Origin: a virus
DNA length: 64,000 bases
Reading direction: 5' to 3' (one strand)
Virus record (IMG/VR): IMGVR_UViG_3300046002_004363
Location: 35,578-99,577 of that record
The notes beneath the pieces are model-generated. The model searched no databases, was not told the origin of the DNA, and worked only from the letters and a program-made list of their open reading frames with translations. Shown here in pieces: positions 9,245 through 36,134 of the stretch (position 1 is its first letter; each line of letters opens with the position of its first letter). The position numbers and the translations under genes were made by a program.

Positions 9245-9783
9245 AAATGCAATATAATTCTATTTTGATTAATCATATATAACTTCTCGTCAAATATCTT
9301 GAACTCGTATTCTGAATCTTTCTTAACGCCAATCAACGAACCTTCGTTTAGATTAGTCATATCTTTATTCTTATACTTTAAGATACATATTTGTTCATTC
9401 TCTTTATGTCCTTCATACTTATCATTGATAGTTGTAGGCTCTATAAAACAAAATGGAGGTAATGCAATTTTATCATCACCCTTTATAACCATATAAGCTA
9501 ATTCCTTCTCAACATAAAATAAGTCATCTTTAATATGATATTTACTCTCCAAAGGAAACCCTTGATTATTATATTGAATCCTAAATGTATTGTGATGTAC
9601 AACTATTGTATCTCCAATTTCTACATCCCCTTCATAACCAATAGGTGTTGATACTACTTCTGCTAATCTTTGTGTGAAGTTGTGGTCCTCAACAGATATA
9701 TTTAAAATTAATCCATTAGATGAATTATTAGAATACCTCTCTTTATTGAAAGGTCTAACTATAAAATAATGTGGACTTCTCAT
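9241..9783 (-). CDS. GroES-like co-chaperonin (possibly two tandem domains)
   Basis: FIVRP...GLIL...AEVV...VEIGDTIV pattern; second half (CFIEP...EGSLIGV...KLYMI...IIL) repeats the layout. Confidence 0.6.
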   Translation of the reverse strand: MRSPHYFIVRPFNKERYSNNSSNGLILNISVEDHNFTQRLAEVVSTPIGYEGDVEIGDTIVVHHNTFRIQYNNQGFPLESKYHIKDDLFYVEKELAYMVIKGDDKIALPPFCFIEPTTINDKYEGHKENEQICILKYKNKDMTNLNEGSLIGVKKDSEYEFKIFDEKLYMINQNRIILHL

Positions 9784-9787
9784 AAGA

Positions 9788-10012
9788 CTATAATTGCGTA
9801 TAGTATTCGATATGAATTACATTGCTTAAATTAAAAGACTTCCATATAGCTTTTACATCGCTATCTATTTCCTTTACATAGATGTCAAAGAACATATCTT
9901 CCTTTATTATATCTGAAACTACTCCAGAGCCACCAAATACATTACTGTTCACTTGGTAGTGCATAATATTGTTATTATCCATTTTAACGGATATCTTTCT
10001 TACTAAATTCAT
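9788..10012 (-). CDS. Hypothetical protein
   Basis: ORF with upstream TATCTTTG promoter (10037-10044). Confidence 0.6.
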   Translation of the reverse strand: MNLVRKISVKMDNNNIMHYQVNSNVFGGSGVVSDIIKEDMFFDIYVKEIDSDVKAIWKSFNLSNVIHIEYYTQL

Positions 10013-10045
10013 ATTAAATTAAATTAAAAATATATGCAAAGATAA

Positions 10046-10606
10046 TTAAAATATAGGGATACCGATTCCTAATGAAATATAAGGCTTTAACGTTTGTGTT
10101 TCATATCCAACACCTCCCTTTAATAATATCTTATTCTTTATGTTCCAATCAATTCCTAAATTCAATTGATTGTTTGTATTGTACGATGCCGAAACAAAAG
10201 CCTTACTCCTATCTCTGTATTTTGTAATTGTGGTTTCTCTTATTGTATCGTTAACTTCTACCTCTGAACAGAAATCTAACAATTCCCCAGTTGTTGTGAT
10301 ATGGGCAATACCTTTAACTCTCTTGCCTTCTATCGGTTGGTTGTATACTTTTGCTGTAATTGACGTTGTGTCTGGTTTATCTAAATACACTAAAGACGTA
10401 TCAGTTTTTCTTATATACACAGTCTTGTACTTAGTAACAATATTATTGTCTTTTACCCTTAAAGTATCTGTTATCTTTATTATTTTATCTTTGTATGTTA
10501 TTGTTTCAGAGACACCTCTATATTCACAGAAATGCAATACAGAAAAAGCCATTACAACCCCAATAGCTATAAATATAACTCGATTTAATATTTTAGAATA
10601 AATCAT
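10046..10606 (-). CDS. Membrane-anchored lysis accessory / spanin-like protein
   Basis: N-terminal TM helix, C-terminal amphipathic beta strands ending in Phe; near endolysin. Confidence 0.45.
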   Translation of the reverse strand: MIYSKILNRVIFIAIGVVMAFSVLHFCEYRGVSETITYKDKIIKITDTLRVKDNNIVTKYKTVYIRKTDTSLVYLDKPDTTSITAKVYNQPIEGKRVKGIAHITTTGELLDFCSEVEVNDTIRETTITKYRDRSKAFVSASYNTNNQLNLGIDWNIKNKILLKGGVGYETQTLKPYISLGIGIPIF

Positions 10607-19878: not shown

Positions 19879-20511
19879 TTAAAATGTTTTGCTTAATGTA
19901 AATATCTCTGAATAAATTGAATCTTCTGCATTAGCTGAACCCCATTTAGCGGTTACGTCTAGCGTGTTATTTATTGTTGTATTGAATGTATTTATAGTAC
20001 TAAAGTTAGTTCCCTCAAATGCCAATCCAGCATTTCTATTATATGAGAATATACCGCCAGACGCTACAGATCCATTACTACCAACACTTCTGACTGTAAA
20101 GTATATGTTTAGCTCCCAGTGTCTATTACTTATTGTGTCTAAATCAATTATTCCTGTATCAGCAAGTATTACAGATCCTGCCTTAATATTTAATCTTAAG
20201 GTTGCAGCTGAGTTGCAAGATATATGACCAATTAACTTTGCGTGATATGAATCCCCAACCTTAAATGCATTTGCAGGAACAGATAATGATCCAACACCAC
20301 TACCAATTAAACTACTTTCTGTAGCTGTGTTTGCTATTGGAGTGCTACTTGTTGTTTGAGCGAATAGACCTACTAGTGGATTTATATAACCATAAATATC
20401 TTGTAGCGAGTAGTATTCGGTTTTTGAATCATTAAGAGACCCTTTCTTCTCGCTTAAATCAACCTTAGAAGAATCTACACCTAAGAATCTTGTATTGGTA
20501 TCTATAGACAT
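19879..20511 (-). CDS. Structural protein, paralogue family A
   Basis: TRFLGVD...DLSEKK...EYYSLQDI N-terminus with beta-rich C-terminal domain. Confidence 0.65.
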   Translation of the reverse strand: MSIDTNTRFLGVDSSKVDLSEKKGSLNDSKTEYYSLQDIYGYINPLVGLFAQTTSSTPIANTATESSLIGSGVGSLSVPANAFKVGDSYHAKLIGHISCNSAATLRLNIKAGSVILADTGIIDLDTISNRHWELNIYFTVRSVGSNGSVASGGIFSYNRNAGLAFEGTNFSTINTFNTTINNTLDVTAKWGSANAEDSIYSEIFTLSKTF

Positions 20512-20514
20512 AAT

Positions 20515-20649
20515 CTATTTCTTCTTAAAAGCCGTACCCATCTTCTCTTTCTTCTCAAAAGCCTTACCTTCTTTTTTCTCGTGCTTAGCCTTAGCTGTTT
20601 TAGAAGTGTATTTTTCTTTTCCTCCGTATTCTTTAATCATTTTTTTCAT
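20515..20649 (-). CDS. Small basic protein (44 aa; start revised)
   Basis: Promoter TATCTTTG at 20678-20685 lies inside the longer ORF call, favouring the ATG at 20649. Confidence 0.55.
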   Translation of the reverse strand: MKKMIKEYGGKEKYTSKTAKAKHEKKEGKAFEKKEKMGTAFKKK

Positions 20650-20689
20650 ATCGTAGAATGTTTTTATTTTTGATTTGCAAAGATACAAA

Positions 20690-20908
20690 TTATTCAACCA
20701 CCTTTATAAAGTTTCCATTCTTATCGTGTAGTGTAGTTAACTCAAACTTTTTATCTAAACCACTAAGTACCACTTCATTTAATTGAAATACCATTTGAAA
20801 TACATTGAAGTCAACTGAACCTCCGTTCTCTTTGTAGTATCTGTAAAACCAACCTATATCGAATTGATTGGTATTTCTCATTTGTATATATTGTTCTCTA
20901 TATTTCAT
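20690..20908 (-). CDS. Hypothetical protein
   Basis: Co-oriented ORF. Confidence 0.5.
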   Translation of the reverse strand: MKYREQYIQMRNTNQFDIGWFYRYYKENGGSVDFNVFQMVFQLNEVVLSGLDKKFELTTLHDKNGNFIKVVE

Positions 20909-20911
20909 AAT

Positions 20912-21760
20912 TTATTTATTTAATTTATCCCAATGTTTAGTTACAGTTATTCTTGACACACCTGATTTTTCTGAAACAGAATTTTTATTTATCTTTTCGT
21001 TATTCAATTTCATTTCATTTATAACGGATTGTATTTCATTTATCTTTTCTTGCTTATTTAATTCATTTTTATTTACAACCAAGTCATAACCTTCAAGTCT
21101 TATGTTTTTAGATACATATTCTTCGTAATGTCTTTTAACTGTATTGAATGATATTTTTGTTCTATCTACTATCTCGTTTATATAGCATTTATCTAAACCA
21201 TCTTTTTCTTCATTTATTATCTTGATAGTCTCAATTATTAAATCTCTTTTATTCATACTTTTTACTTTATTTAAAAATGTTAATGCTTCTTTTTGTTTTT
21301 TCTTTGCTTTAAAATCAGAATAATATTTATCTTTTTTATAACCATCAAGTGAATTATACATATCTAATTCTTCTTTAGTCATAACAAATAATTCATCTAA
21401 ATTTGTTTTCCACATTATTTTTTTGTCTTCATAAATCATATTCAACATTTCTTGACTAAATTCTTTGTTAAAACATTCTTCTGCTATCGAATATATATCA
21501 TACTCTGAAACATATATCCCCTTTATCTTTTTTGTTTTCCTTATTAAAGATATACCCTCATCTACCAACATACCAATATTAACATCATCATTCAAATACA
21601 TTAGTTTATAGAAAAAAGACTCAACATTCCTCATTGCAGATGCTCTTGTATAATTAATACCAACATATCTTGCATCAACACAAGTATATCCATCTGGATA
21701 ATACCAAAAGTATTTATGCTCAATAGCTGTGGTTTTATTTATAGTTCTATAGTAAATCAT
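20912..21760 (-). CDS. DNA-binding protein with two HTH motifs (start revised)
   Basis: INEIVDRTKISFNTVKRHY and NSVSEKSGVSRITVTKHW; promoter TATATTTG at 21766-21773. Confidence 0.6.
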   Translation of the reverse strand: MIYYRTINKTTAIEHKYFWYYPDGYTCVDARYVGINYTRASAMRNVESFFYKLMYLNDDVNIGMLVDEGISLIRKTKKIKGIYVSEYDIYSIAEECFNKEFSQEMLNMIYEDKKIMWKTNLDELFVMTKEELDMYNSLDGYKKDKYYSDFKAKKKQKEALTFLNKVKSMNKRDLIIETIKIINEEKDGLDKCYINEIVDRTKISFNTVKRHYEEYVSKNIRLEGYDLVVNKNELNKQEKINEIQSVINEMKLNNEKINKNSVSEKSGVSRITVTKHWDKLNK

Positions 21761-22346
21761 ATATGCAAATATACGAAAAATATGTATATAAATTACGCTA
21801 TCAATATACAATTATTAACTTATATTAAAAATGTATATACCTATTCAAACCATCCTTTTATAATATACGGACATTAATGGTGTATACACTTTTATCAATA
21901 ATTTGTTATATATTCTATGTTAGATAAGTCTGTTGTAGTTAGTATGGTCTGTTGTTGTGATTATAACCCCACCCTACGATCACCACCCTCCCCACCAAAA
22001 CCATCCACCAAAGCCTACGGGGGTAACCTTTCAAAATGTTTCTCCAAAAGTTTTTACCTTTTTAGCCTGGATTGATGTCGTGGTACATTACAGCCTACTT
22101 ATTTAACGGCACAATATTGTAGTTAATCCATTCAACGTTTTAGGTAATCAACTTTTAAAACCAAAATACAAAGGTTTTATTTTTTTGTGGTGTGAAGTGG
22201 CTTTTGTCGGTGCAACTAATCCCAAAACCTAAAGCAATTTTAACCTAAAATAACTACATTCTAAAAGTTAAGTTCTTAAATTATAATAATATCATAAAAT
22301 TGTATAAAATGTAACTACTTGAAAATCAAAGGCTTTAATAATAATC

Positions 22347-22417
22347 AAGTTAAAAAGTGTTAAAGTTTTGTTAAAGGTATTGTTATCTAAAATTAAATAC
22401 CTATATTTGTAGTGTAA
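22347..22417 (+). promoter_or_regulatory. Early promoter P1
   Basis: GTTAAAAAGTGTTAAAGTTTT upstream block plus TATATTTG (22402-22409). Confidence 0.7.
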
Positions 22418-22583
22418 TAATGAAACAAAGTTCTTTTATATACATTATGTAATACACGATAAGGCTAAACCACAGGTATACTATAAAATAAGTAAATGTG
22501 AAATAGGCAAACATCCGAGTATTGTAAGTTAGTTGGTCACACGTTACGCAAAGCAGTATGGTACACAAGGCGATAAGATAGCA

Positions 22584-22646
22584 AATGTTAAAAAAGTGTT
22601 AAAGTTTTTGTATATTAAATAACTTGTTATATATTTGCAGTGTTAA
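22584..22646 (+). promoter_or_regulatory. Early promoter P2 (near-duplicate of P1)
   Basis: GTTAAAAAAGTGTTAAAGTTTT plus TATATTTG (22630-22637). Confidence 0.7.
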
Positions 22647-22815
22647 GTAGAGACAAACTACTTCAAAATAAATCAGCTGATACCACAGGCTTACGATGTG
22701 GAGGTAGTCATAAAAGACTATAAAATAGGGTGTGGTCACTCAGGAATAAGCGGTAAAAAGTAATCCGTGAAGTCCGAGACTACGATACTGCCAACTACAT
22801 AGGTATAAGGTCGTT

Positions 22816-22870
22816 AAGCGTATAAGGATGTGTTATCCTTACTGAAGAGAGGCAGAACCTCGAAACGCTT
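22816..22870 (+). ncRNA. Hammerhead ribozyme, type III
   Basis: AAGC-GUA; stem I UAAGGAU/AUCCUUA; core CUGAAGA; stem II GAGG/CCUC; GAAA; stem III CGCUU; predicted cut after A22822. Confidence 0.9.
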
Positions 22871-22886
22871 TTTAAAATTATACACT

Positions 22887-22997
22887 ATGAAGAATAAACT
22901 TAAGGTTATAGCGCTACTAATTGTGGCGCTATTTCTATTAGCAGTAGCAGAAAAACATTGTGAAACCAAAAATAAATACTATGAAGGGCAGAAGTAA
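22887..22997 (+). CDS. 36-aa single-TM peptide (not in ORF track)
   Basis: MKNKLKVIALLIVALFLLAVAEKHCETKNKYYEGQK; first ORF after the ribozyme. Confidence 0.5.
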   Translation: MKNKLKVIALLIVALFLLAVAEKHCETKNKYYEGQK

Positions 22998-23130
22998 TTC
23001 AAGTAGCAGAAGGTTAGCCTTAACCATCAGCACAAGCAGTACAATGAATGATTTTATTAACAAAAAATTAGGAGTAACTAAAGAAAACAAACGACCAATT
23101 TTAATCAAACCAACTAAAAAATAATATATT

Positions 23131-23319
23131 ATGGACAAATCTTATTCAATTTTTTGCATCGCAAGTCAGTTATTAAAAGATAACGAAAGAGAGTTAGATA
23201 TAGTTTGGCAAAATGCAACCGAACTATACAACGAATTTTTAAATAGTAGTTTCGATAATGTTAACGAATCGGAGTTGGACTGCATAAATGATTTTTTAAA
23301 TTATAAAAATCTAATATAA
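23131..23319 (+). CDS. Early hypothetical protein
   Basis: A-rich leader, coupled to next ORF. Confidence 0.55.
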   Translation: MDKSYSIFCIASQLLKDNERELDIVWQNATELYNEFLNSSFDNVNESELDCINDFLNYKNLI

Positions 23320-23660
23320 TGAAAACACTACAAATTAATTTGGGATTAAATAATAATCCAATGGATCGTGATCAGGTAGCTAACTACTTTTATGCACTAT
23401 CTGAGTATAGACTAATGGCTTATATCATCAAGGATAAGACCTTTAATGGTGAAGTAGAGCCTACTTTTGTAGCCTTATTAGAGCATAAGTACACACGTGA
23501 CAGCAAAATACTATCTGATGCTGAAAATTGGTGTAGCCTATTCACTCAGGAGTCAATTGCAGTAGTGACTGATAAAATGGAGGTGCTTGCATTCAATACG
23601 AAGTACGAAGGAGATACCTACAAATTTGATTCTAGTCTATTTGAATACATTAAAATATAA
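23319..23660 (+). CDS. Early hypothetical protein
   Basis: 113-aa ORF. Confidence 0.6.
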   Translation: MKTLQINLGLNNNPMDRDQVANYFYALSEYRLMAYIIKDKTFNGEVEPTFVALLEHKYTRDSKILSDAENWCSLFTQESIAVVTDKMEVLAFNTKYEGDTYKFDSSLFEYIKI

Positions 23661-23729
23661 CCTTATGAGAGCAATTATAAAATTTTTAGAAGAGTTAGCT
23701 AAGAATTGTCCGAGCGAGACAAAATGGTA

Positions 23730-23787
23730 GGCAAACTGATGAGGTTTTAATAACCGAAACTTGGATCTTCGGATCTGAGTCTTTGTC
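23730..23787 (+). ncRNA. Hammerhead ribozyme, type I
   Basis: Stem I GGCAAA/UUUGUC; core CUGAUGA; stem II GGUU/AACC; GAAA; stem III CUUGGAUC-UUCG-GAUCUGAG; GUC triplet, predicted cut after C23781. Confidence 0.92.
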
Positions 23788-23809
23788 AAACTTTAAAAAC
23801 AATACTAAT

Positions 23810-24061
23810 ATGAGAACAAAACAAGTTTTAGAATACATAGAAAACACACTAAATCAAACACCTAGACACAATTGTACAGCACTAGCTAAGGCTATAACCC
23901 AAGCTAGTAAAAAATTCAAGCAGGACCAATTCGATATGATGATGTTACTACTGGAAAATAAACCAATAGGAGGTCACACTCATAGCTATGGTTTCCACAC
24001 GTCATACGGAAGAGATCTAATAGACACAATGTCAAACTATTACTATAAATTTAATAACTAA
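23810..24061 (+). CDS. Early hypothetical protein (start revised to ATG 23810)
   Basis: The TTG start in the track lies inside the ribozyme; A-rich leader precedes ATG 23810. Confidence 0.55.
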   Translation: MRTKQVLEYIENTLNQTPRHNCTALAKAITQASKKFKQDQFDMMMLLLENKPIGGHTHSYGFHTSYGRDLIDTMSNYYYKFNN

Positions 24062-24074
24062 AACCAAGCATATT

Positions 24075-24491
24075 ATGAGTAATTATAAAACATTTTACGA
24101 AAATACAATTGTAGACAATATAGATTTAGAGTCTTATGGTTTATCTAATGACGTATACCTATACGATAAAATTAAAACAACGTACAACATATTCAAACAA
24201 GAGTATGGTTTTATGATTGATAGAGTAGGCGAAGTAAACGCATTTAAAGAATGGTTAATGGGATTACCAAGTGTCTTAAGTGTTCCGTTTATGAATAGCG
24301 AAATATTGTCTTTAGCAAAAGATAATGGATTCCTTAACGTGCAATGCATAACAAACCATATAGATGGTAGTAAAACAACTGAATATGTTTATGCAGAAGG
24401 CAGAATGTTAGAACGTATAGAAGATAGATTTTTAAATAACTATTGGACTAACTTAGCCTTAGCTTTTTTTAACTTAAAAGATAACCTTTAA
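24075..24491 (+). CDS. Early hypothetical protein
   Basis: EWLMGLPS motif; operon context. Confidence 0.6.
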   Translation: MSNYKTFYENTIVDNIDLESYGLSNDVYLYDKIKTTYNIFKQEYGFMIDRVGEVNAFKEWLMGLPSVLSVPFMNSEILSLAKDNGFLNVQCITNHIDGSKTTEYVYAEGRMLERIEDRFLNNYWTNLALAFFNLKDNL

Positions 24492-24503
24492 AATTATATA
24501 ACT

Positions 24504-24800
24504 ATGGAATTTACAAACGAATTTAAGAGTACAAGAAGTGGTTTTAATCACACGTCTAAACTATGGAGTAGCAAAGGAGAGTTATTAGCCGTAGCGGTCT
24601 GCAGATACTTAAATAGAACATGGGAAAGTTATGCATTTCAATCATCAATGAAGTCTGCGGTTTATCAGGCTATAGAAAATCAAGTGCAAAAAGAAAAACA
24701 ACTGCAAAGGATAACAAGACTAACCAAGAGTAAGAGACTAGAGATAGAAAATTACTCATCAATTATAAATGAATTAAAGGAACTATATAAGACATTGTAA
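24504..24800 (+). CDS. Early hypothetical protein
   Basis: TRSGFNH...YLNRTWESY motif. Confidence 0.6.
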   Translation: MEFTNEFKSTRSGFNHTSKLWSSKGELLAVAVCRYLNRTWESYAFQSSMKSAVYQAIENQVQKEKQLQRITRLTKSKRLEIENYSSIINELKELYKTL

Positions 24801-25093
24801 TGAATATAAAAGACCAATTCAATAAAAGCAAAGGACTCCCTTTATATGAGATAGAAGTAACTAATCTAATTAGTAATAAAGATGACTTCATTATCTTCGA
24901 TATAACGGCATATAAAAATTATTTCAAGGTAACACATCAGCCACTTACTGAAGAGCAAGAAAATAGCTGTAAAATAGCCTCATTCTTTATGCCTATAGAT
25001 AATGAGGTTTCTTTAGAAGAACACCTTAATGAGTTATACCAAAAATGTTGTGAAGAAATAACAAGTAGTGATTATTATATTTTAAATGATTAA
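24800..25093 (+). CDS. Hypothetical protein
   Basis: Translationally coupled ORF. Confidence 0.55.
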   Translation: MNIKDQFNKSKGLPLYEIEVTNLISNKDDFIIFDITAYKNYFKVTHQPLTEEQENSCKIASFFMPIDNEVSLEEHLNELYQKCCEEITSSDYYILND

Positions 25094-25471
25094 AGATATG
25101 AGACCGAGAATTAATAGACGTGTGAATGTTCAGCAAGTGATTGAACACCTAGAGAACAAACGTAGAGTGTATTCAGAAGCTATTACAGACCTTATGAATG
25201 AAGAAGGTATATCTTATACCAAAGCAAAAGAATTGTTAAATAAAAGGCTATACGATAAGGTGGTCTTTAAATTTTAAGGTATGGTAATAGTAAACCAAAT
25301 TGATAATGAATTTTGGCAAATGAGATTGTTTGAACCGAGTAATAATATTTGGTTTGAACTTCTCTGCCTTGATTTAGAATCATTAACGCTACAAGCGAGT
25401 GTAATATATAACGTAGATTTAAACGAAGTCTTAAACTAATGAGAGTGAGAGACGCTAAATAATTCTAAGAT

Positions 25472-25678
25472 ATGACAGAAACTGCACAAATACACGGAAG
25501 TCAATTACATTTAGGAGAATTTATCTATGTAATAAATAGATACGGAAGATTCCTTAGGAAGATTACTTGGCTAAATACATACTACTTTGAATGGAATTCA
25601 GGTTATAGTAGTATAAACGAATTAGAATTAAATACAGATCAAAAAAGTAAAGTTAAATTTTTATTAAAAGAAGAATAA
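25472..25678 (+). CDS. Hypothetical protein
   Basis: TAAGATATG start context. Confidence 0.5.
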   Translation: MTETAQIHGSQLHLGEFIYVINRYGRFLRKITWLNTYYFEWNSGYSSINELELNTDQKSKVKFLLKEE

Positions 25679-25681
25679 ATT

Positions 25682-25822
25682 ATGGAAGAGTATAGTAATT
25701 GCTGTGGTGCAGGTAGACACCACATATATAACGAACTTTGTGCTGACTGTTTAGAGCATTGTGAGTTTGAAGAAGATGAAGACTTTGAATATGATGCGGA
25801 CATCGAGGATTTACAAAGTTAG
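25682..25822 (+). CDS. Small Cys-rich zinc-binding protein with acidic tail (46 aa, not in ORF track)
   Basis: MEEYSNCCGA...LCADCLEHCEFEEDEDFEYD. Confidence 0.6.
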   Translation: MEEYSNCCGAGRHHIYNELCADCLEHCEFEEDEDFEYDADIEDLQS

Positions 25823-26020
25823 ATGTACATTGAATGTACGAAACCAAATAATTAAGGGTATTATAACAAGAGGTAAGGCATACGATGTTATATGGAGTAA
25901 TGAGTACGGCTTTACCTTCCTTAATGATAAGGGTAAATTGTCTTTAGGTAGATTTAAAAATTGTCATATAATAAATGGCGATTGGGAAGTAATTTAAGAA
26001 ACAAAATATAAAAATATAAA

Positions 26021-26368
26021 ATGGAAGTAAAGAAATTCACATTATTTGAGGTGGCTAAGATATTAAGAAATCAACACCTAAACAAACTAAACTACAAAGA
26101 CTACAATAAATTTACTCAAGATGATTTTGAAGGTGTTGAGTATGTAAGGGTTAATAACAAGACAAGACCAAAAGATTTAGTAGGTAAGAGTGGTAGGGTA
26201 TCTAAGATGATCACCGCAATATCACCTAAGGGTAAGGAGATTGTATTCGATGGTGTTACAGATATTTGCGAGGCCTTAGATATTAAGGCTAAGAACTACT
26301 GGAGAAAGATGGCAGAGAATCAAGGGTACACTATTGTAAGTGTAGAAGAAGTAGCTAAATTAATTTAA
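26021..26368 (+). CDS. Hypothetical protein (possible NUMOD1/HTH C-terminus)
   Basis: A-rich leader; EIVFDGVTDICEALDI. Confidence 0.5.
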   Translation: MEVKKFTLFEVAKILRNQHLNKLNYKDYNKFTQDDFEGVEYVRVNNKTRPKDLVGKSGRVSKMITAISPKGKEIVFDGVTDICEALDIKAKNYWRKMAENQGYTIVSVEEVAKLI

Positions 26369-26558
26369 AGAAAAATAAGATGAAAAAAATACTTAAAAAA
26401 TTAGAGAAATTAAATAAAATAAGTGGTGATACCAATATGATACAGATATTCTCAGATGGCAGTGGCTTTGTATTGTATGAAACAGAAGATATTAGATTTG
26501 AATTTCTGAGTATTAAGCAATTAAAGAAATACCTTAAAACAATTTAAAAAGAAATAAG

Positions 26559-26771
26559 ATGGAAAATAAAGAAATACTTGAAGAAGTTGCTGAACAATTT
26601 GAATATACTAATGGTATATATGGATTTAAACAAGGTGCTAAATGGCAACAAGAACAAGACAAGAATAAGTATAGTGAAGAAGAAGTAATTCAACTACTAA
26701 TAAAATTCAATCAAGAAATTCAAGAAGTGGAAAATGTTAGAGGTTGGTTTGAAGAATTTAAAAAGAAATAA
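26559..26771 (+). CDS. Small mosaic hypothetical protein
   Basis: GAKWQQEQ..YSEEEV...WFEEFKKK modules shared with 39545..39832. Confidence 0.6.
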   Translation: MENKEILEEVAEQFEYTNGIYGFKQGAKWQQEQDKNKYSEEEVIQLLIKFNQEIQEVENVRGWFEEFKKK

Positions 26772-26774
26772 GAT

Positions 26775-26960
26775 ATGGAACACTTTAAATACAGATGGAA
26801 AATAGTTAATGTATACTACGAAACTATAGATGATGATCCAGAGTTAAGACCAGATATAGTACTTGATGCCGTTTATTATAATGGTATAGACATATTGCCA
26901 ATAATGAATGAAGTAGATTGTATTGAGTTAAAAGAAGAAATGTATAATCAATTATTTTAA
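26775..26960 (+). CDS. Hypothetical protein
   Basis: TAAGATATG start context. Confidence 0.5.
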   Translation: MEHFKYRWKIVNVYYETIDDDPELRPDIVLDAVYYNGIDILPIMNEVDCIELKEEMYNQLF

Positions 26961-26963
26961 AAT

Positions 26964-27131
26964 ATGAATAAGGTAGAAATTATTGCAGAATTAGATAAAC
27001 TAATGTATATTGCAGAACAATTAGAGAATACTTTTTTAGTTGGTAGACTTGAGGCAATAAAGCAATCACTTATAAAGGATTGGAATGAGAGTGATGCTTA
27101 CTATAAAATTATAAGTAATCAATTGAAATAA
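26964..27131 (+). CDS. Hypothetical protein (55 aa, not in ORF track)
   Basis: Its TAA stop is part of the TAAC box opening the cassette array. Confidence 0.5.
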   Translation: MNKVEIIAELDKLMYIAEQLENTFLVGRLEAIKQSLIKDWNESDAYYKIISNQLK

Positions 27132-27244
27132 CGGTTCTCGGCTTGGCGAAGTTGCAGAATGTTGAAATTAAACACTAAATATTACAGATTATGACTAAAC
27201 ATTCAGAAAATACCAAAAGTAGCAATAGCACAAAACCTGTGTTA
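27129..27244. repeat. attC-like site 1 (chimeric)
   Basis: TAAC 27129, GTTA 27241; right half 69/77 identical to site 4. Confidence 0.7.
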
Positions 27245-27463
27245 CAATCAGTTTTTTTTGACTTTGATTATTGGAATAAATGCAATGCTTTATGGAATGT
27301 TTCTCCGCATCATTCTTTTGAAAATTTAGTAGTCATTGAATATGTTGGAACAAGTAAAATGAGAATTTCTATTTGTGTTGAAAAAAATGAATTTGAATTA
27401 GGTTTAAATAGATTTTGGAGTGAGTTCAAACGTCAAAGTGAAAATAATGCGTTACGTAATTAA
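27191..27463 (+). CDS. Cassette 1 hypothetical protein
   Basis: Starts within site 1, stops at the next box. Confidence 0.65.
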   Translation: MTKHSENTKSSNSTKPVLQSVFFDFDYWNKCNALWNVSPHHSFENLVVIEYVGTSKMRISICVEKNEFELGLNRFWSEFKRQSENNALRN

Positions 27464-27472
27464 AATTGATTG

Positions 27473-27598
27473 TAACGTATGTGGCTTTAAGCAGTTGCCA
27501 ATAAAACTGCCTTAACTTTTGATTTAAAACTAATGATTACAGATACAAAACAACCTTTAAATTTAGCCGAAAGTGGCAATTGCTTAAAGCCGCTGTTA
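27473..27598. repeat. attC-like site 2
   Basis: Arms GTGGCTTTAAGCAGTTGCCA (27481-27500) / TGGCAATTGCTTAAAGCCGC (27574-27593): 18 Watson-Crick pairs plus 2 G-T. Confidence 0.85.
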
Positions 27599-27985
27599 CA
27601 AGCAGTGTTTTTAGTTCCTTATGTTCCGTATTATTTACGAATATTTGAACCAATTTACAACGAAAAATATACACTTGTTGGAATTATTGAAAATGAACTT
27701 TATTGCAAAGAAACTGAAATAGATGATTGTTTCTCTTTTGAAATAGACGAAAATACATTTCCAATATTAAGACCGTTGTCTGATTTTTACGATATAAATG
27801 CACCCGCATTTATTGATACAAATTTTGATATTCCAACACAATTAGTTTTGGTTGATTTATGCTCTAAAAAACAACATTATTCAAGCGTAAGATATTCAGA
27901 TATGCAAGAGTTTTTACGTGAACATATTGACATTTTCAATCTTATTGAACAAGATTTAGCCGTTTCAATCCACGATGTTGTGTAA
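27533..27985 (+). CDS. Cassette 2 hypothetical protein
   Basis: PYVPY...PILRPLSD...HIDIFNLIEQDLAV; starts within site 2. Confidence 0.7.
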   Translation: MITDTKQPLNLAESGNCLKPLLQAVFLVPYVPYYLRIFEPIYNEKYTLVGIIENELYCKETEIDDCFSFEIDENTFPILRPLSDFYDINAPAFIDTNFDIPTQLVLVDLCSKKQHYSSVRYSDMQEFLREHIDIFNLIEQDLAVSIHDVV

Positions 27986-27994
27986 CATTGCTTA

Positions 27995-28104
27995 TAACGT
28001 TCCCACGCTTGGCATCAGTTGCCTAACGGAATAATCAAATGAATTAATAAAAAACAATAATGTCAAACGAAACACTAATAGGCGATTGTGCCAAACGTGT
28101 GTTA
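27995..28104. repeat. attC-like site 3
   Basis: Arms CACGCTTGGCA(T)CAGTTGCCTA / TAGGCGATTGTGCCAAACGTG with one bulged T. Confidence 0.85.
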
Positions 28105-28118
28105 AAAAACGTATTAAA

Positions 28119-28346
28119 ATGAAACAACAAACAGCAGTAGAATGGTTAGAAGAACAATTATTTGGTTCATTAGGAATTGAATTAACAGAACATCAATCAA
28201 AAATGGCTAATGAAATATTCTTTAAACAAGCCAAAGAAATGTTTGAAAGTCAAATTATTAATGCACATACATCAGGGCAATTAGAAAATGATTTACTACC
28301 AAACGAAAAAGCACAACAATATTATAAGCAAACTTTTAAAAAATAA
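28119..28346 (+). CDS. TAVEWL-family small protein (start revised)
   Basis: MKQQTAVEWL; paralogues at 38866 and 39131. Confidence 0.65.
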   Translation: MKQQTAVEWLEEQLFGSLGIELTEHQSKMANEIFFKQAKEMFESQIINAHTSGQLENDLLPNEKAQQYYKQTFKK

Positions 28347-28351
28347 AAATT

Positions 28352-28630
28352 ATGATTTTTAAATTAATTTTTGAGGACAAACAAGAATATGCACAAGCTA
28401 AATCACAACTTCATTTATTACAAAAATGGAATAAAGAATATGATGATTTTGAAGATATTTTAGAGGTAATTGAAATATCAGAAGAAGAAGCAAAAATAAT
28501 TATGCTTTCAAACAATGAGTATGACCCTGAATTGCCAATTGACGATGAATTTAATTACCCTGAATTTTCATTATATGATACCGTTGTAGGCGATGATTTC
28601 GTAGTAGTTGGTTCAACGGAATGGGATTAA
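28352..28630 (+). CDS. Cassette 3 acidic hypothetical protein
   Basis: Stop codon overlaps the closing inverted repeat. Confidence 0.6.
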   Translation: MIFKLIFEDKQEYAQAKSQLHLLQKWNKEYDDFEDILEVIEISEEEAKIIMLSNNEYDPELPIDDEFNYPEFSLYDTVVGDDFVVVGSTEWD

Positions 28631-28639
28631 TATGTTTTT

Positions 28640-28769
28640 TAACGTTATCAGGCTTTGTGTCTGTTGCGACCAAAAATAAAACAAATTTTAATTTAAACAC
28701 TAAAAATTACAGATTATGATTAAACATTCAGAAAACACCGAGCCAAGCAATAGCACAAAACCTGTGTTA
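28640..28769. repeat. attC-like site 4
   Basis: Arms CAGGCTTTGTG(T)CTGTTGC / GCAATAGCACAAAACCTG with one bulged T. Confidence 0.85.
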
Positions 28770-29144
28770 GCAAATCGTATTTTTAAACTTCGTGCTTGGG
28801 TTAGAAATGAATTAATGGTTAATGTCGTAAGTATAGATTTCAATAATGAATTTATAACTTGGGACGACAATCAATACGATAGATGTGTTCCTCCAAATAA
28901 ATGCTATGAAATTGAAACTTTTGATGATATTGTTTTAATGCAATTTACAAATTTTAAAGATAAAAAAGGAATTGACATTTATGAAGGAGATAAAATAAAA
29001 TACAAAAATTTCAAAGGTTATTCAACAATTGTTTTTGAAAACGGTGCTTTTGGTTATTACGGAATTTCTTGTTTTATTACTCTTTTAGAAACAAATGCAG
29101 AACATATAGAAGTTATTGGAAACGTCTTTCAGTATTCTGAATAA
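28716..29144 (+). CDS. YopX-family protein (cassette 4)
   Basis: FKLRAW...LMQFT..KDKKGIDIYEGD...EVIGNV. Confidence 0.85.
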   Translation: MIKHSENTEPSNSTKPVLANRIFKLRAWVRNELMVNVVSIDFNNEFITWDDNQYDRCVPPNKCYEIETFDDIVLMQFTNFKDKKGIDIYEGDKIKYKNFKGYSTIVFENGAFGYYGISCFITLLETNAEHIEVIGNVFQYSE

Positions 29145-29210
29145 TATGTTTGCTAACTACAACATTACATCATAAAAAATATTATTTTCTATTATTAACA
29201 CTTATAAACA

Positions 29211-29411
29211 ATGGAAATTTATACAGAAGTACATAGCTTTACTTTAACGAAAGAACAAAAGAAAATCTTAACCGATTTAAAGGCAAACAAAGTGAATGTT
29301 TCAAAGTTAATAAGAGAAATACTATTTAAGGAATTAACGTCAAAAGTTGACAAAAGAAAGAAACCAACAATTGACGATTTAAAAAATAGTTTAGATAACG
29401 TGTTTATTTAA
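29211..29411 (+). CDS. Ribbon-helix-helix-like small regulator
   Basis: SFTLT...NVSKLIREIL. Confidence 0.5.
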   Translation: MEIYTEVHSFTLTKEQKKILTDLKANKVNVSKLIREILFKELTSKVDKRKKPTIDDLKNSLDNVFI

Positions 29412-29485
29412 ATATAAATACTATATTTGCATACGGAGAAGCCGAACACCGAACATAGTAGGCAATACATTTTAAATTATATTAT

Positions 29486-29797
29486 ATGGCTCAATTGATT
29501 GCAGTTAGCGTTGACCTAACAAAAATTGACAAAACAAGAATCGTTGAAGGTAGAAATGGAGGTAAATACATAAACCTTACCATCTCTGTAAACGATGAGG
29601 AGGACCAATACGGAAACAATGTTTCTTTATGGCAGTCACAAACTAAGGAAGAGCGTGAGGCTAAGGAGAATAGATTGTTCTTAGGTAATGGGAAGTCATT
29701 ATGGAGTGATAGTGATAAAGGCACAAAAGCATCTAAGACTTCTAAGAAAGAAGAGGCTATTGCAAATGACGAACAACACAATGACCTGCCATTCTAA
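29486..29797 (+). CDS. Single-stranded DNA-binding protein (putative)
   Basis: Beta-rich core, acidic tail ending DLPF; promoter at 29422-29429. Confidence 0.65.
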   Translation: MAQLIAVSVDLTKIDKTRIVEGRNGGKYINLTISVNDEEDQYGNNVSLWQSQTKEEREAKENRLFLGNGKSLWSDSDKGTKASKTSKKEEAIANDEQHNDLPF

Positions 29798-29868
29798 AAA
29801 GGTAGTAAAATAAATTTGTAATTACCATTTTAATTCTCTATATTTGTATATCTTAAAAATATATAAGT

Positions 29869-30375
29869 ATGGAGAATTTAATTTTAAAAAAGGTTTGTTT
29901 TAAGTGTAATGAAGAAAAAGAAATCACAGAATATTACAAACATAAAGAAATGTCTGACGGTCATTTAAACAAGTGTAAAAATTGTACTAAAAAAGATTCT
30001 AAAATAACTTTAGAATTAAAAACATCTACTACAGAAGGTTTAGAAAAAGAACGTGCAAGGCATAGAGAAAAGTATAAGCGTTTAGGATATAAAGATAAGC
30101 AAAAAAAATGGGATGAAAAAAGACCACATACTAAAAGTAGTAAGTATAAAAACTTAAGTAGAAATAATAAAATACCTAAAGGTTTTGAAATACACCATTG
30201 GAATTATTTAGACATTTTTTTAGAAGACTTTTTTATACTACCAATAAAAGAACAACGAAAAGCACATACTTTTTTAAATAAACTAAATAATATTTTTGAA
30301 GGTTTAAATGGTGAAATATTAGACACAAGGGAAAAGCATTTTAATTATTTAGTTAGTAAAGGAATAGTGTTTTAG
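29869..30375 (+). CDS. Zn-finger HNH-like endonuclease
   Basis: CFKC...CKNC, EIHHWNY; own promoter at 29839-29846. Confidence 0.65.
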   Translation: MENLILKKVCFKCNEEKEITEYYKHKEMSDGHLNKCKNCTKKDSKITLELKTSTTEGLEKERARHREKYKRLGYKDKQKKWDEKRPHTKSSKYKNLSRNNKIPKGFEIHHWNYLDIFLEDFFILPIKEQRKAHTFLNKLNNIFEGLNGEILDTREKHFNYLVSKGIVF

Positions 30376-30458
30376 CAATCAAGCACTTAGATTATTAATT
30401 AAAACATTTGATTTAGAGGTTTTCATTGAGAAATACTACTAAATAACACAACTAACCT

Positions 30459-30491
30459 AAAGAGAGGTATCGTATGGTACTTCTCTTTTTT
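30459..30491 (+). terminator. Intrinsic terminator
   Basis: AAAGAGAGGTA-tcgtatgg-TACTTCTCTTTTTT. Confidence 0.65.
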
Positions 30492-30511
30492 AATACAAAA
30501 CAAATTAAATT

Positions 30512-31126
30512 ATGGCAACAAAAAACACAGAAAAGAAAATGAATTTATTTCAAAAATTATTAGAGATTCAAAAAGTAGTAGTTGGTCTTGGTAAGGATTC
30601 AAAATCATTCGGATACCAATATGTATCAGGTTCAAAGGTATTAGAACACATTAAGCCTATGATGAATGACTTAGGTATTATCTTAAAGCAAGAGATAATT
30701 GACATTGAGAATACAAGACAAGATTACGCAACAAAGAATGGATCTAAGACAGAGATACTAACTAAGGCGATTATGAGATTCACTTGGGTAGATTGTGAGA
30801 CTGGAGATAAAGATGAAAATTTATTTGCTGCTAATGGATTCAATGATTTTGATAAAGGCGTTGGATCTGCATTAACTTATGCCGAGAGATACTTCTTACT
30901 TAAGTACTTTCACATTGCTACTGATGAGGATGACATCGATAATCCTAATCGTAAGCCTACTGAGGTTACAAAACCTAATAACTCCACAACACCAACCCCT
31001 AAGAAACCAACAATAAGCGACTTATCAAAGGTTAAAGATGCACTAAAGAAAGATATGGAGACAACATTAAAGATGCTTGAGAAGTACGATATAACACCAG
31101 AACAGAAAAGAGAGTTGGGAATTTAA
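30512..31126 (+). CDS. ERF-family ssDNA annealing protein
   Basis: GSALTYAERYFLLKYFHIATDEDD. Confidence 0.9.
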   Translation: MATKNTEKKMNLFQKLLEIQKVVVGLGKDSKSFGYQYVSGSKVLEHIKPMMNDLGIILKQEIIDIENTRQDYATKNGSKTEILTKAIMRFTWVDCETGDKDENLFAANGFNDFDKGVGSALTYAERYFLLKYFHIATDEDDIDNPNRKPTEVTKPNNSTTPTPKKPTISDLSKVKDALKKDMETTLKMLEKYDITPEQKRELGI

Positions 31127-31152
31127 TTCCTGACTCTTAAATAAAGTAAGAT

Positions 31153-31866
31153 ATGAATAAAATAATTTTAATAGACGCTGACAGTTTTGCATACATAGGT
31201 AATAACTGCGAAGAAGTAGACCAAGCATACGATAAAGTAGACCAAGCAATATCAAATATCATAGCGACATCTGGAGCAAGTCATTACAAGGTTTTCATTG
31301 AAGCAATTGGAAACCAAACATTTAGACGTATTGCATTTAATTCTTATAAGTCAGGAAGAAAAAATAAAGAACTGCCAAAGTATTATAAAGACATAAAGCA
31401 ATACATAATTGAAACTTATAACCCATTCATTAGTTGTGGTGTTGAGAGTGATGATTCTATAATTTCAACACACAAGCATTTAAAAGAAGAATATCCGTTC
31501 ACAGAAATAATAATTGCAGCAATGGATAAAGACTATCTAACACACGAAATATCAAGGTTTGATACTTATTACAGCAGATTCGGAGAAATAAAAACAGTTA
31601 GCAAAAAAGAAGCTGAATTTAATTTTTATAAACAAATGATAGAAGGTGACTCTAGCGACTCCGTTTCTGGCGTTAAAGGTTCTGGTAAGGTAATGGCAGA
31701 GAAAGTCCTTAAAAATAGCTATAATTACTTTATATCGACCTGTAGGCATTATAAGTTAAAGCATAAGAATAAATGGAGGGATAGTTTTAAGAAAAATTAC
31801 TTCCTATTAAGGATAAGAGATGATGTTAGGTTTTGTAAAGAACTTGATTTAGTTGAGTTTGAATAA
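31153..31866 (+). CDS. 5'-3' exonuclease (T7 gp6/PolI N-terminal-like)
   Basis: LIDADS, FR..YK.GR, ESDD, DKD and GDSSDSVSGVKG motifs. Confidence 0.85.
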   Translation: MNKIILIDADSFAYIGNNCEEVDQAYDKVDQAISNIIATSGASHYKVFIEAIGNQTFRRIAFNSYKSGRKNKELPKYYKDIKQYIIETYNPFISCGVESDDSIISTHKHLKEEYPFTEIIIAAMDKDYLTHEISRFDTYYSRFGEIKTVSKKEAEFNFYKQMIEGDSSDSVSGVKGSGKVMAEKVLKNSYNYFISTCRHYKLKHKNKWRDSFKKNYFLLRIRDDVRFCKELDLVEFE

Positions 31867-31883
31867 TTTTTTTGTATCTTTGT

Positions 31884-31977
31884 GTTGCATTTGAAATCTC
31901 GACAATATAATGCAATAAAAATATTTGCCTTGCGATACGGATAGGAGTCGAGACCTTGAAGTATTGTGAGGCTTTTT
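31884..31977 (+). promoter_or_regulatory. Structured 5' leader (kissing loop plus terminator-like hairpin)
   Basis: Loop TCTCGAC complementary to loop GTCGAGA; follows promoter 31875-31882. Confidence 0.65.
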
Positions 31978-31990
31978 AATTTTAAAAGAT

Positions 31991-32725
31991 ATGTTAAAAA
32001 AATGTAGTAAATGTAAAGAAGAAAAAAAAATTGTTGAGTTTTCAAAAGACAAAACAAGAAAAGATGGTTATTATCATCAATGCAAAAGTTGTAGAAAAGA
32101 ATGGAGATTAAATAATAAAGAAAAGCAAAAAAAATACTATGATAATAATAAAGAAAGGATAAAAGAACGAGATAAAAAATATTATAAAGAAAATAAAGAA
32201 ATAATATCAATACAAAAAAAACAATACAAGCAAAAAAATAAAGAAAATATAACAGAACAAAGAAAACAATATAGAAAAGAAAATAAAGAATATATAAACA
32301 AATACGGAAAACAATACTATGAAAAAAATAAGGGTAAAATAAAAAAATGGCATGAAGAAAATAAAGAAAAAAGAAATGAATATGCAAGAAAATATAACAA
32401 ACAAAGAAAACAAACAGACTCATTATTCAAATTAAGAAATAATATTGGCTCTTTAATTTGTCATTCAATGAAAAATAAAGGATATACTAAACGTTCTAAA
32501 ACATTTGAGATACTAGGTTGTTCTTATGAAGAATTTAAGTTGCACATAGAAAAACAATTCAAAGATGGTATGAGTTGGGAAAATACTGGACAATGGCACT
32601 ACGACCATATTTACCCTGTATCTTTAGCTAAAGATGAAGAAGAATTAATTAAATTAAATCATTACACTAATTTTCAGCCGTTATGGGCTATTGATAACTT
32701 AAAAAAAGGAAATAAAATAATATAG
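31991..32725 (+). CDS. HNH homing endonuclease with N-terminal Zn finger
   Basis: CSKC...CKSC; K/E/Y repeats; WHYDHIYP...NHYTNFQPLW..NLKKGNK. Confidence 0.85.
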   Translation: MLKKCSKCKEEKKIVEFSKDKTRKDGYYHQCKSCRKEWRLNNKEKQKKYYDNNKERIKERDKKYYKENKEIISIQKKQYKQKNKENITEQRKQYRKENKEYINKYGKQYYEKNKGKIKKWHEENKEKRNEYARKYNKQRKQTDSLFKLRNNIGSLICHSMKNKGYTKRSKTFEILGCSYEEFKLHIEKQFKDGMSWENTGQWHYDHIYPVSLAKDEEELIKLNHYTNFQPLWAIDNLKKGNKII

Positions 32726-35192: not shown

Positions 35193-36134
35193 ATGAATCA
35201 TAGTTTTAACGTAGATATAGCAAAAAAATATGGTGTAGAATTGGCTATAATTTTAGAAAATATGCAGTGGTGGATTGCTAAAAATAAAGCTAATAAAAAG
35301 CATTTTCATCAAGGAAGTTACTGGACATATAATTCTGTAAAAGCATTTTCTGAACTATTTCCTTATTGGTCTGTACATCAAATAGGCAGGTTTTTAAGAA
35401 GACTAGAAGACGAAGGTTTGATAGTGTCTAAAAACTTTAATAAGGCTGGATATGACAAGACAAAGTGGTATACAGTCAATGATAGCTTGATTTTGCAAAA
35501 TTGCAACATCGAATGTGCAGAAATGCACAATCCATTGTGTGAAAATGCACAACCTATACCAGATATAAACACAGATATAAATAATTCTCTTGTAGGGTCT
35601 TCTCAGACACCTACGAAAAAAGATTCTAAGAAAGATTTATTTAAAACCAAATTGTCAGAAATTGATGTTACTACACTTGATAAGCAAGAACAAGTATATT
35701 TTAAAATAGCTATTGGTTTTAGAGATTTGTTTATAAAGAACAAAAAGGCTTTAGGTGTTAATGATTTTAGAGACCAAGAAAACGCTACTTACAAAAATTA
35801 TGTTGACCCAATAAGATTATCTTTTACGCAAGATAAAAAAACAGAGGAAGATTTTAGAAAGGTGTATGCTTTTTTAATGAATGATGAATTCTGGATGAAG
35901 AATATAATGTCTACATCTAAGTTAAGAGAAAAAATGTCTGATTTACTGATAAGATCATCTTCTGTTCCGACTAAGAAACAAGTACTACCATCAGACTTTT
36001 GGGTAAGGGAATTAAGTGATGAGCAAAAGAAATTACTAAGCGATAAAGACTTAGCTACTTGGGAAAGACAGAAGACAGCAAGGCTTATGGAGGGTGGTAG
36101 AATGTTACCTATAAAAATAGAATATGAAAAATAA
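35193..36134 (+). CDS. Replication initiator (winged-helix, lambda O/DnaD-like; start revised)
   Basis: WTYNS...LFPYWS...L..EGLI...YDKTKWY; internal direct repeats; FWMKNIMS.SKLR; directly upstream of primase-helicase. Confidence 0.75.
   Translation: MNHSFNVDIAKKYGVELAIILENMQWWIAKNKANKKHFHQGSYWTYNSVKAFSELFPYWSVHQIGRFLRRLEDEGLIVSKNFNKAGYDKTKWYTVNDSLILQNCNIECAEMHNPLCENAQPIPDINTDINNSLVGSSQTPTKKDSKKDLFKTKLSEIDVTTLDKQEQVYFKIAIGFRDLFIKNKKALGVNDFRDQENATYKNYVDPIRLSFTQDKKTEEDFRKVYAFLMNDEFWMKNIMSTSKLREKMSDLLIRSSSVPTKKQVLPSDFWVRELSDEQKKLLSDKDLATWERQKTARLMEGGRMLPIKIEYEK

Follow-up and report, generated by a model that had tools for sequence, protein, structure and literature searches.

The stretch of viral DNA analysed here, hereafter the window, comprises 64,000 nt (positions 35,578 to 99,577) of the 99.6-kb IMG/VR virus record IMGVR_UViG_3300046002_004363, and contains an array of four small gene cassettes at window positions 27129-29157. 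Each cassette begins with a hairpin site that resembles the attC recombination sites of integrons, and in three of them the main open reading frame (ORF) opens at an ATG within the site and continues through the right arm of the hairpin into the cassette body. The window backbone is about 91% identical to the Flavobacterium podophages of the vB_FspP_elemo group, in which no match to window positions 27100-29250 was found. Homology to the array-less elemoA_7-9A ends at window position 27131, which is the last base of a TAA serving both as the stop codon of a backbone ORF (26964-27131) and as the start of the first TAAC box, and restarts at 29379. Erf or exonuclease recombination genes adjoin the array in the phages.

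The four sites and all ORFs of the array lie on the plus strand, and a scan of positions 20000-32000 with a covariance model of the site family matched these sites on that strand only, with E values of 3e-18 to 3e-11, and found nothing significant beyond them. Site S1 (27129..27244; 72.9 bits, E 7e-12) is a hybrid site followed by the cassette-1 ORF of 90 aa (27191..27463), whose first 18 residues, through the Leu read from TTA, are a leader encoded by the site. Site S2 (27473..27598; 104.6 bits), a well-paired hairpin with ATG 27533, provides a 22-residue leader to the cassette-2 ORF of 150 aa (27533..27985). Site S4 (28640..28769; 107.5 bits), which belongs to a class designated K-type, carries ATG 28716 and encodes the 18-residue leader of an ORF of 142 aa (28716..29144), whose product was identified as a YopX-family protein (PF09643, 53.9 bits against a cut-off of 22.4). 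The YopX cassette ends in an orphan TTTGCTAAC box (29148..29157), which is the reverse complement of GTTAGCAAA at 28766, and no full site was found 3' of this box in the window phage. All four ATGs are located between the arms of a TAACG...TGTTA inverted repeat, and the G of GTTA lies at 27241, 27595, 28101 and 28766 in S1 to S4, respectively.

Site S3 (27995..28104; 69.4 bits, E 3e-11) also has an ATG in its loop, at 28060. The ORF that begins there crosses GTTA and comprises 20 codons (28060-28119) followed by a stop codon at 28120-28122, and the two longer ORFs of cassette 3 (28119-28346, 75 aa, and 28352-28630, 92 aa) start 3' of GTTA. Because ATG 28060 opens only 20 codons and the first long ORF, at 28119, is in a different frame, this ATG is not the N-terminus of the cassette-3 gene. 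The short ORF ends in a TGA that overlaps the start codon of the following gene (ATGA at 28119-28122), and it might possibly act as a coupling ORF for this gene. A site-initiated ORF ending no more than 10 nt from the main ATG is present in about 9 of 46 cassettes with downstream starts, and metagenome copies of S3 contain 1-nt indels in the 20-codon ORF. The preliminary description of this DNA, according to which an ATG in every site opens the following gene, is thus right for S1, S2 and S4 and wrong for S3.

The site family was modelled on an alignment of 45 homologous long sites from other phage or viral loci together with S2 and S4, and S1 and S3 were outside the training set of the covariance model. 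The covariance search of the window returned nothing with default filters and all four sites with the filters off. Sites were defined by the complementarity of cassette ends (see below); an energy-based finder misses S1 and some K-type sites, and simple IUPAC patterns were insensitive, recovering at most 27 of 62 sites. The consensus hairpin has 22 pairs, 15 of which show compensatory double changes, and TAAC and GTTA are invariant in 45/45 aligned sites. Site lengths range from 63 to 131 nt, with a mode of 124-131 nt and minor classes of 63-75 and 90-93 nt. The features by which attC sites are recognised, namely an imperfect inverted repeat with AAC and GTT triplets and a length of 57-141 nt, are found in these sites, and an Rfam search placed no family on them.

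A hairpin had been described at each of the four sites, and the covariance model finds all four, but the arms of S1 do not pair (z +1.1). S2 has a DNA fold of -24.3 kcal/mol (z -5.0 against shuffles) and S3 a z of -2.2, and on energy alone only these two beat the shuffles. Alignment to S4 indicates that S1 consists of the left arm of another site family joined to a K-type loop and right arm, and this foreign left arm accounts for the missing fold. S4 is 91% identical to sites in unrelated siphophages. Hybrid sites occur twice, as S1 (27129-27244) and as the site before position 4112 of locus L010; in both, the families join near the GTTGC box and the arms no longer pair. Two G.T pairs on the coding strand are invariant or nearly so (TAACG/TGTTA in 45/45 sites, GTTGC/GCAAT in 42/45); the same pairs are A.C mismatches on the other strand, and they may be a feature of strand choice or recognition. 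Three irregularities interrupt the pairing, each of them in the 5' arm when the coding strand is considered: a conserved bulge of 3-4 nt that follows TAACG, a 1x1 mismatch (position 13) and one bulged base near position 20.

Every cassette body opens with GTTA plus 6-10 nt, and its end is the reverse complement of these bases followed by TAAC. The corresponding pairs in the window are GTTACAATCA / TGATTGTAAC, GTTACAAGCA / TGCTTATAAC, GTTAAAAAAC / GTTTTTTAAC and GTTAGCAAA / TTTGCTAAC. Applied as a rule (GTTA+N6 against the reverse complement of N6 plus TAAC, with at most one mismatch), this complementarity, which often extends to 10-16 nt, links chains of up to 18 cassettes, and in the rest of the 99.6-kb genome it gave no chained false positives. 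It holds in about 127 cassettes, 85 of them distinct, from six phage or viral genomes and nine further loci, the sources being unrelated Flavobacterium siphophages (vB_FspS_morran, hattifnatt and others), four IMG/VR contigs of 35-143 kb and small contigs of metagenome-assembled genomes (MAGs). Complementary cassette ends of this kind are a signature of integron cassettes.

Judged from its boundaries, the mobile unit is a site together with its downstream ORF, from TAAC to TAAC. This follows from two loci (L001 and L002) in which identity over two cassettes begins at the TAAC of the upstream site and stops at the next TAAC, and from an 841-nt sediment metagenome contig that is equal to 28640-29157 (S4 and YopX) with 0 mismatches and has unlike flanks on both sides. 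Since site and ORF form one unit, a leader normally moves along with the body it heads, and adjacent cassettes do not have to match in frame. A second breakpoint lies at GTTA, as K-type sites, which are 85-97% identical over the stretch from TAACG to GTTA, diverge immediately beyond it. Similarly, the cassette-2 body is 96% identical to its counterparts in L052 and L053, in which the preceding site differs and homology begins at CCGCTGTTA, and the same pattern was found in L056 and L057. Many metagenome contigs break at 27598, 28764 and 28770, and contigs matching S2 only diverge at 27481 and 27598. The phage cassettes do not have the canonical integron arrangement, in which the site lies 3' of the ORF and crossover takes place at one box (G|TT of R').

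Two further observations concern the cassette borders. The locus L001:4382-4741 and a cassette in L018 (minus strand, ~8029) have in common the site and a 38-nt untranslated stretch through the ATG, and are alike again from the stop codon on, with unrelated ORFs between, i.e. an exact ORF swap. In addition, in very many cases the ORF 5' of a site ends exactly 12 nt ahead of TAAC or on the TAA of TAAC; the stop-before-TAAC pattern is seen in the window at 27461, 27983, 28628 and 29142, as well as at many other loci.

The leaders of S1 and S4 are equal in 15 of 18 residues, their DNA being 88% identical over 83 nt, and they head unrelated bodies. K-type leaders were found on nine bodies without pairwise BLASTP similarity, always joined exactly at GTTA and always with an offset of 50 nt between ATG and GTT, and the S2 leader also heads a PF01555 methyltransferase. 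Near-identical leaders on unrelated bodies, as noted in the preliminary description, are thereby confirmed, and so is the expectation that homologues outside such sites lack the leader, which was checked for YopX and for the cassette-2 family. Residues 25-141 of the YopX protein match positions 2-124 of the 128-position PF09643 profile, and its homologues in phages mostly align from residue 18-24. The cassette-2 protein has no relatives in IMG/VR, its family members coming from a metagenome scan; leaderless homologues among them start about 8 residues before a conserved PYLPY motif. This family has at least six different TTA-frame leaders on bodies that are 85-96% identical, all in frame, and GTT-frame leaders on diverged subfamilies (offsets 45 and 48; L056/L057). 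Leaders and bodies have thus been exchanged in frame, as had been proposed, but not in a single frame, since one family is fused in both. The leader peptide itself is not conserved and is most likely a by-product of the site DNA, because K-type leader variation has no third-position bias and the same arm consensus is read in two frames. The same combination of K-type site and YopX cassette was found in another viral contig (L017:4687-5214, G003); there, a stop interrupts the frame after 30 codons, an ATG located 52 nt beyond GTTA reopens it, and the cassette may be a decaying copy.

The preliminary description had further proposed that all sites are read in one fixed frame. The ATGs at 27191, 27533, 28060 and 28716 lie 50, 62, 41 and 50 nt from GTT, all 2 mod 3, so that TTA is read as Leu at each of the four window sites, and the peptides quoted for them are correct. 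However, this agreement reflects shared descent, S1 and S4 being copies and the S2 loop being homologous to theirs with its ATG 12 nt earlier, and four out of four sites in one frame is weak evidence for a fixed frame. A census was made of site-internal starts, defined as an ATG in the upstream site that opens an ORF of at least 30 codons past GTTA. Such starts are present in 30 of the 85 distinct phage or viral cassettes, three of the 30 having atypical site lengths (144-194 nt). The GTT frame is used in 16 of them (ATG-to-GTT offsets 42, 45, 48, 51, 60 and 69), the TTA frame in 12 (offsets 50 and 62, and one ATG directly before TTA) and the nGT frame in two (offset 61), the last being disfavoured because TAA or TAG arises whenever A or G comes after GTTA. 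The remaining 55 sites supply no start, and their ORFs begin 8-58 nt or more after GTTA. The observation of starts within sites therefore holds for three of the four window sites and generalises to other loci; the fixed frame does not, GTT being as common as TTA elsewhere.

Several features suggest that translation does initiate at the loop ATGs. In most cases, over 30 codons separate GTTA from the following in-frame ATG (in cassette 1, this ATG comes 118 nt after the G of GTTA), and in the body at L010:5503 none of the first 29 codons after the junction is a possible start codon. A occurs at -3 in 73% of loop ATGs and 89% of downstream starts, against a background of 35%, and at -10 to -13 in 65-92% and 63-83%, respectively, against the same background of 35%; G is nearly absent 5' of loop ATGs. 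In F. johnsoniae, A at -3 and low structure tune initiation, with which the loop context agrees (PMC6847099). The preliminary description had also suggested that folding of the hairpin could gate translation; the start region in the loop is predicted to be mostly unpaired, with a probability of 0.65 against 0.26 for the arms. K-type sites have no gap columns from ATG to GTTA and six upstream of the ATG, and the GenBank gene calls for morran9-1 use loop ATG starts. The loops were also considered as promoters, which was rejected, as the Bacteroidota -7 motif TAnnTTTG occurs in only 3 of 62 sites.

The site model matches 126 of 151 sampled Flavobacterium genomes. Four genomes have chromosomal arrays of about 30-45 sites over 20-44 kb, with 141 sites in 208 kb (L072-L082; G040:C1 3.738-3.769 Mb, G032:C12 206-227 kb, G095:C1 199-241 kb and G153:C1 2.301-2.345 Mb), and a literature search found no paper describing these Flavobacterium arrays. 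In the four arrays, 83 of 100 cassettes have the ORF opposite to the site-model strand, i.e. in gene-then-site order, and only three of these 83 start inside a site. Of the 17 inverted array cassettes, six start inside their own site, and all ORFs of the phage cassettes are on the site strand, i.e. inverted. Starting inside a site therefore goes with inverted cassettes (3/83 against 6/17 in the host and 30/85 in phages). At three of the four arrays, a tyrosine recombinase gene encoding 345-346 aa is found some 1 kb outside one end; the enzyme matches NF040815 best (XerA/integron integrase; 219.9 bits, cut-off 220), its closest solved relative is XerA, and the copies of G040 and G032 are 68% identical. 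No IntI with its characteristic insertion adjoins the arrays, and true IntI is rare in the genus, TIGR02249 exceeding its cut-off in 1 of 301 Flavobacterium genomes. The IntegronFinder 2.0 survey found almost no integrons in Bacteroidetes (PMC9024848). A 277-aa Xer-like recombinase is encoded on a phage contig (L013:1198-2031; G002:C1:3600-4433) between DNA methyltransferase and primase genes; it is 39% identical to the array-linked enzyme, and the G002 array runs off the contig end. The possibility that every array-bearing phage encodes the recombinase was rejected on the distribution of PF00589 given below.

Taken together, S1-S4 are probably attC-like sites of an integron-like system of Flavobacterium and its phages, in which inverted cassettes have loop starts in about one third of cases. 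The basis is the sequence itself, namely the site family and its covariation, cassette-end complementarity, unit boundaries, ORF continuity, leader and body combinations and start context. The sites would be structure-specific recombination sites, their system occurring widely in Flavobacterium and in several of its phages, and recombination would be performed by the array-linked Xer/IntI-like recombinase. In the phage unit, TAAC..site..GTTA..ORF..TAAC, the site is placed 5' of its own ORF, and translation of an inverted cassette would have to begin within its own site or shortly behind it. The A-rich, largely unpaired loop of about 65 nt could offer a ready start region to ribosomes working without Shine-Dalgarno sequences; the start codon of roughly every third inverted cassette would lie in the loop, from which translation would run through the 3' arm and GTTA into a start-less body. 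The frame would be set per junction, in the TTA or GTT class and rarely nGT, and with both boxes breaking, sites and bodies would be reshuffled and selection would retain the in-frame combinations. S3 could represent a variant in which a short ORF ends on the ATG of the next gene. The site thus appears to be a reusable 5' start module in two frame classes, normally tied to its own body, whose leader peptide is presumably without function. Start-in-site seems to be a feature of inverted cassettes, and the integron-like system to be far larger than the window phage.

A bolder form of this reading is conceivable, and we hold it only tentatively. The hairpin would be dual, acting as a DNA recombination site and, in RNA, through its conserved A-rich loop, as a Shine-Dalgarno-free start that can encode the first 14-23 residues; both boxes (TAA|C and G|TTA) would recombine, making sites and bodies exchangeable independently of each other within two frame classes, and the whole would be a genus-wide Flavobacterium system, run by the Xer-like enzyme instead of IntI, that has gone unrecognised. 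If true, phages would capture start-less ORF fragments and express them at once in an early operon.

A number of results weigh against an integron-like system with loop starts. In every K-type site, TTA is immediately preceded by an in-frame GTG or ATG, a possible true start, and variation in the K-type leader is spread over the three codon positions as 7/4/6. The folding energy of S4 is no better than that of shuffles, and folding energies favour neither strand, RNA parameters slightly preferring the complement and DNA parameters the coding strand. The bulged arm adjoins the crossover box, which appears to be the mirror of the arrangement in class 1 attC sites, and breakpoints at two boxes are unexpected for canonical one-strand integron recombination. 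Against the integron-integrase model, whose cut-off is 265 bits, the array-linked recombinase reaches 202 bits, matching in two stretches with the IntI insertion missing. Moreover, the tyrosine recombinase family PF00589 was absent from G000, G001, G003, G004 and morran9-1 and present in G002 only, and BLASTP revealed no protein family common to all six phage genomes.

The K-type codon at -2 is the starting point of an alternative which we consider unlikely, namely that the loop ATGs are unused, the real start being an NTG abutting TTA (GTG/ATG-TTA) or lying downstream, and that the open frame of the arm is incidental. In-frame GTG (7/8) or ATG (1/8) is found at -2 of K-type sites, morran9-1 gp021 can start only at the ATG that abuts TTA, and the lack of third-position bias in the leader would be expected as well. 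However, the class with offset 62 has CTG at -2 and the GTT-frame junctions have no start codon there, and bodies such as that of L010:5503 offer no in-frame start over 29 codons after the junction. The -2 codon is in the paired base of the stem, whereas the loop ATG is in the A-rich context of true starts, and the indels of K-type sites are 5' of the loop ATG and never 3' of it.

The strict version, which makes each site a universal module for initiation, always in the same frame (TTA as Leu), and by which any ORF fragment captured in that frame is expressed and all swaps stay in frame, is very unlikely, despite the uniform offsets in the window, the K-type leader at offset 50 on nine bodies and the six or more TTA-frame leaders on one body. 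It is largely refuted by the census, in which 16 of 30 junctions are in the GTT and two in the nGT frame, and it is at odds with a protein family fused in both frames, with 55 of 85 sites lacking a start, with the 20-codon ORF of S3, and with leader and body being one mobile unit. The portable initiation module of the preliminary description survives insofar as sites do provide start and N-terminal codons to start-less bodies; its claim that any captured ORF is expressed was too strong, given two frames, startless sites and units that move whole, and what is seen are in-frame survivors within two frame classes. It is also quite unlikely that the hairpins are mainly regulatory intergenic elements acting at the RNA level (terminator, processing or stability) and shuffled by homologous recombination, with the start overlap resulting from gene packing. 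The Erf or exonuclease genes beside the array, the hybrid sites S1 and L010:4112, the pair in which the conserved module continues through a 38-nt untranslated leader to the ATG, and the two invariant G.T pairs on the coding strand would all suit such elements. They would not account for cassette-specific inverted repeats of 10-16 nt flanking every body, for sharp breakpoints at 4-nt boxes, or for the same sites in 20-44 kb chromosomal arrays beside a dedicated tyrosine recombinase with ORFs mostly on the opposite strand, and neither Rfam nor the -7 motif (3/62 loops) gives a sign of them.

The likeness to integrons lies in the imperfect hairpins of 63-131 nt with ..AAC / GTT.. boxes and cassette-specific complementary ends, in the arrays of one-ORF cassettes, in phage copies without an integrase, and in sedentary host arrays with a tyrosine recombinase at one end. 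Unlike integron attC sites, the sites described here have TAACG / TGTTA boxes with an invariant G.T, binding boxes about 20 bp apart in each arm and a conserved loop module of about 65 nt; they lie 5' of the phage gene, often with its start codon, they have two breakpoint boxes, and the array recombinase is Xer-like and has no IntI insertion. The repeats of the Vibrio cholerae superintegron (VCRs) are similar in being sites of about 125 nt that resemble each other across unrelated ORFs in large arrays with a minority of cassettes inverted, and differ in sequence, host phylum and recombinase. To our knowledge, VCRs have not been described as encoding the N-termini of cassette proteins. T4-type phages have mobile promoter-early stem-loop cassettes, reportedly described by Arbiol, Comeau and Krisch in 2010, which carry promoters and for which shuffling by homologous recombination has been proposed. 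These also involve repeated intergenic stem-loops that flank small phage ORFs, expression signals and modular shuffling, but in the present cassettes there is no promoter motif, and there are cassette-specific terminal inverted repeats and a recombinase-linked host array.

Integrase-less clusters of attC sites (CALINs) are known in phages, including a Polaribacter phage, and have not been described in the phages considered here (Qi et al. 2023, PMC9892861); the paper describing the vB_FspS phages makes no mention of repeats, hairpins or integrons. In integrons, ORF-11 and ORF-18 of attI1 as well as short attC ORFs aid cassette translation (PMC8876359). The sites described here resemble ORF-11/ORF-18 in having the start region in the recombination site, an ORF across the crossover and coupling to a gene without its own start region, and within the window it is S3 only, with its 20 codons and ATGA overlap, that would correspond to a coupling ORF of the ORF-11 type. 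In contrast, S1, S2, S4 and about 27 other cassettes are fused in frame and receive their first 14-23 residues from the site, and the start sits in an attC-like loop here and in attI there.

So far, integron cassettes have been viewed as promoterless, with the site behind the gene and the promoter in the platform, and site-aided translation has been seen only via small coupling ORFs. Here, many cassette proteins would receive their start codon and N-terminal codons from the recombination site itself, specifically in inverted cassettes, the only kind kept by these phages. In a phylum that lacks Shine-Dalgarno sequences, this would be one way in which inverted or start-less cassettes come to be expressed, and N-termini are seen to be reshuffled in frame at a recombination box. 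Annotation is affected as well, as gene callers will give unrelated phage proteins near-identical N-termini which are site DNA and not homology. Furthermore, the host-wide arrays beside a Xer-like recombinase suggest a large cassette system missed by standard integron finders.

In bacterial genome contigs, the K-type site pattern was found in three short MAG contigs and two chance matches only. Many contigs from wastewater, sediment and freshwater metagenomes match sites alone (window 27068-28831; runs X2, X5, X10 and X19), and the summed depth is much higher over sites than over bodies; the YopX body is also common in metagenomes, and the cassette-1 body is almost absent. RNA-library contigs (run X19) span S2, S3, S4 and YopX and are uninformative on transcription, ends and starts. 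The virus record opens within another piece of cassette array outside the window (G000:C1:95-527), and an ORF of about 615 aa occurs twice in it, about 63 kb apart (G000 8555-10402 and 71701-73548); the 99.6-kb record may therefore exceed a single genome length or be joined from related phages. Finally, a weak Rfam match to DUF805b (21.8 bits, E 0.014, under the gathering score) lies at window 29432-29464, and a promoter-like motif, TATATTTG, is present just before it, at 29422.

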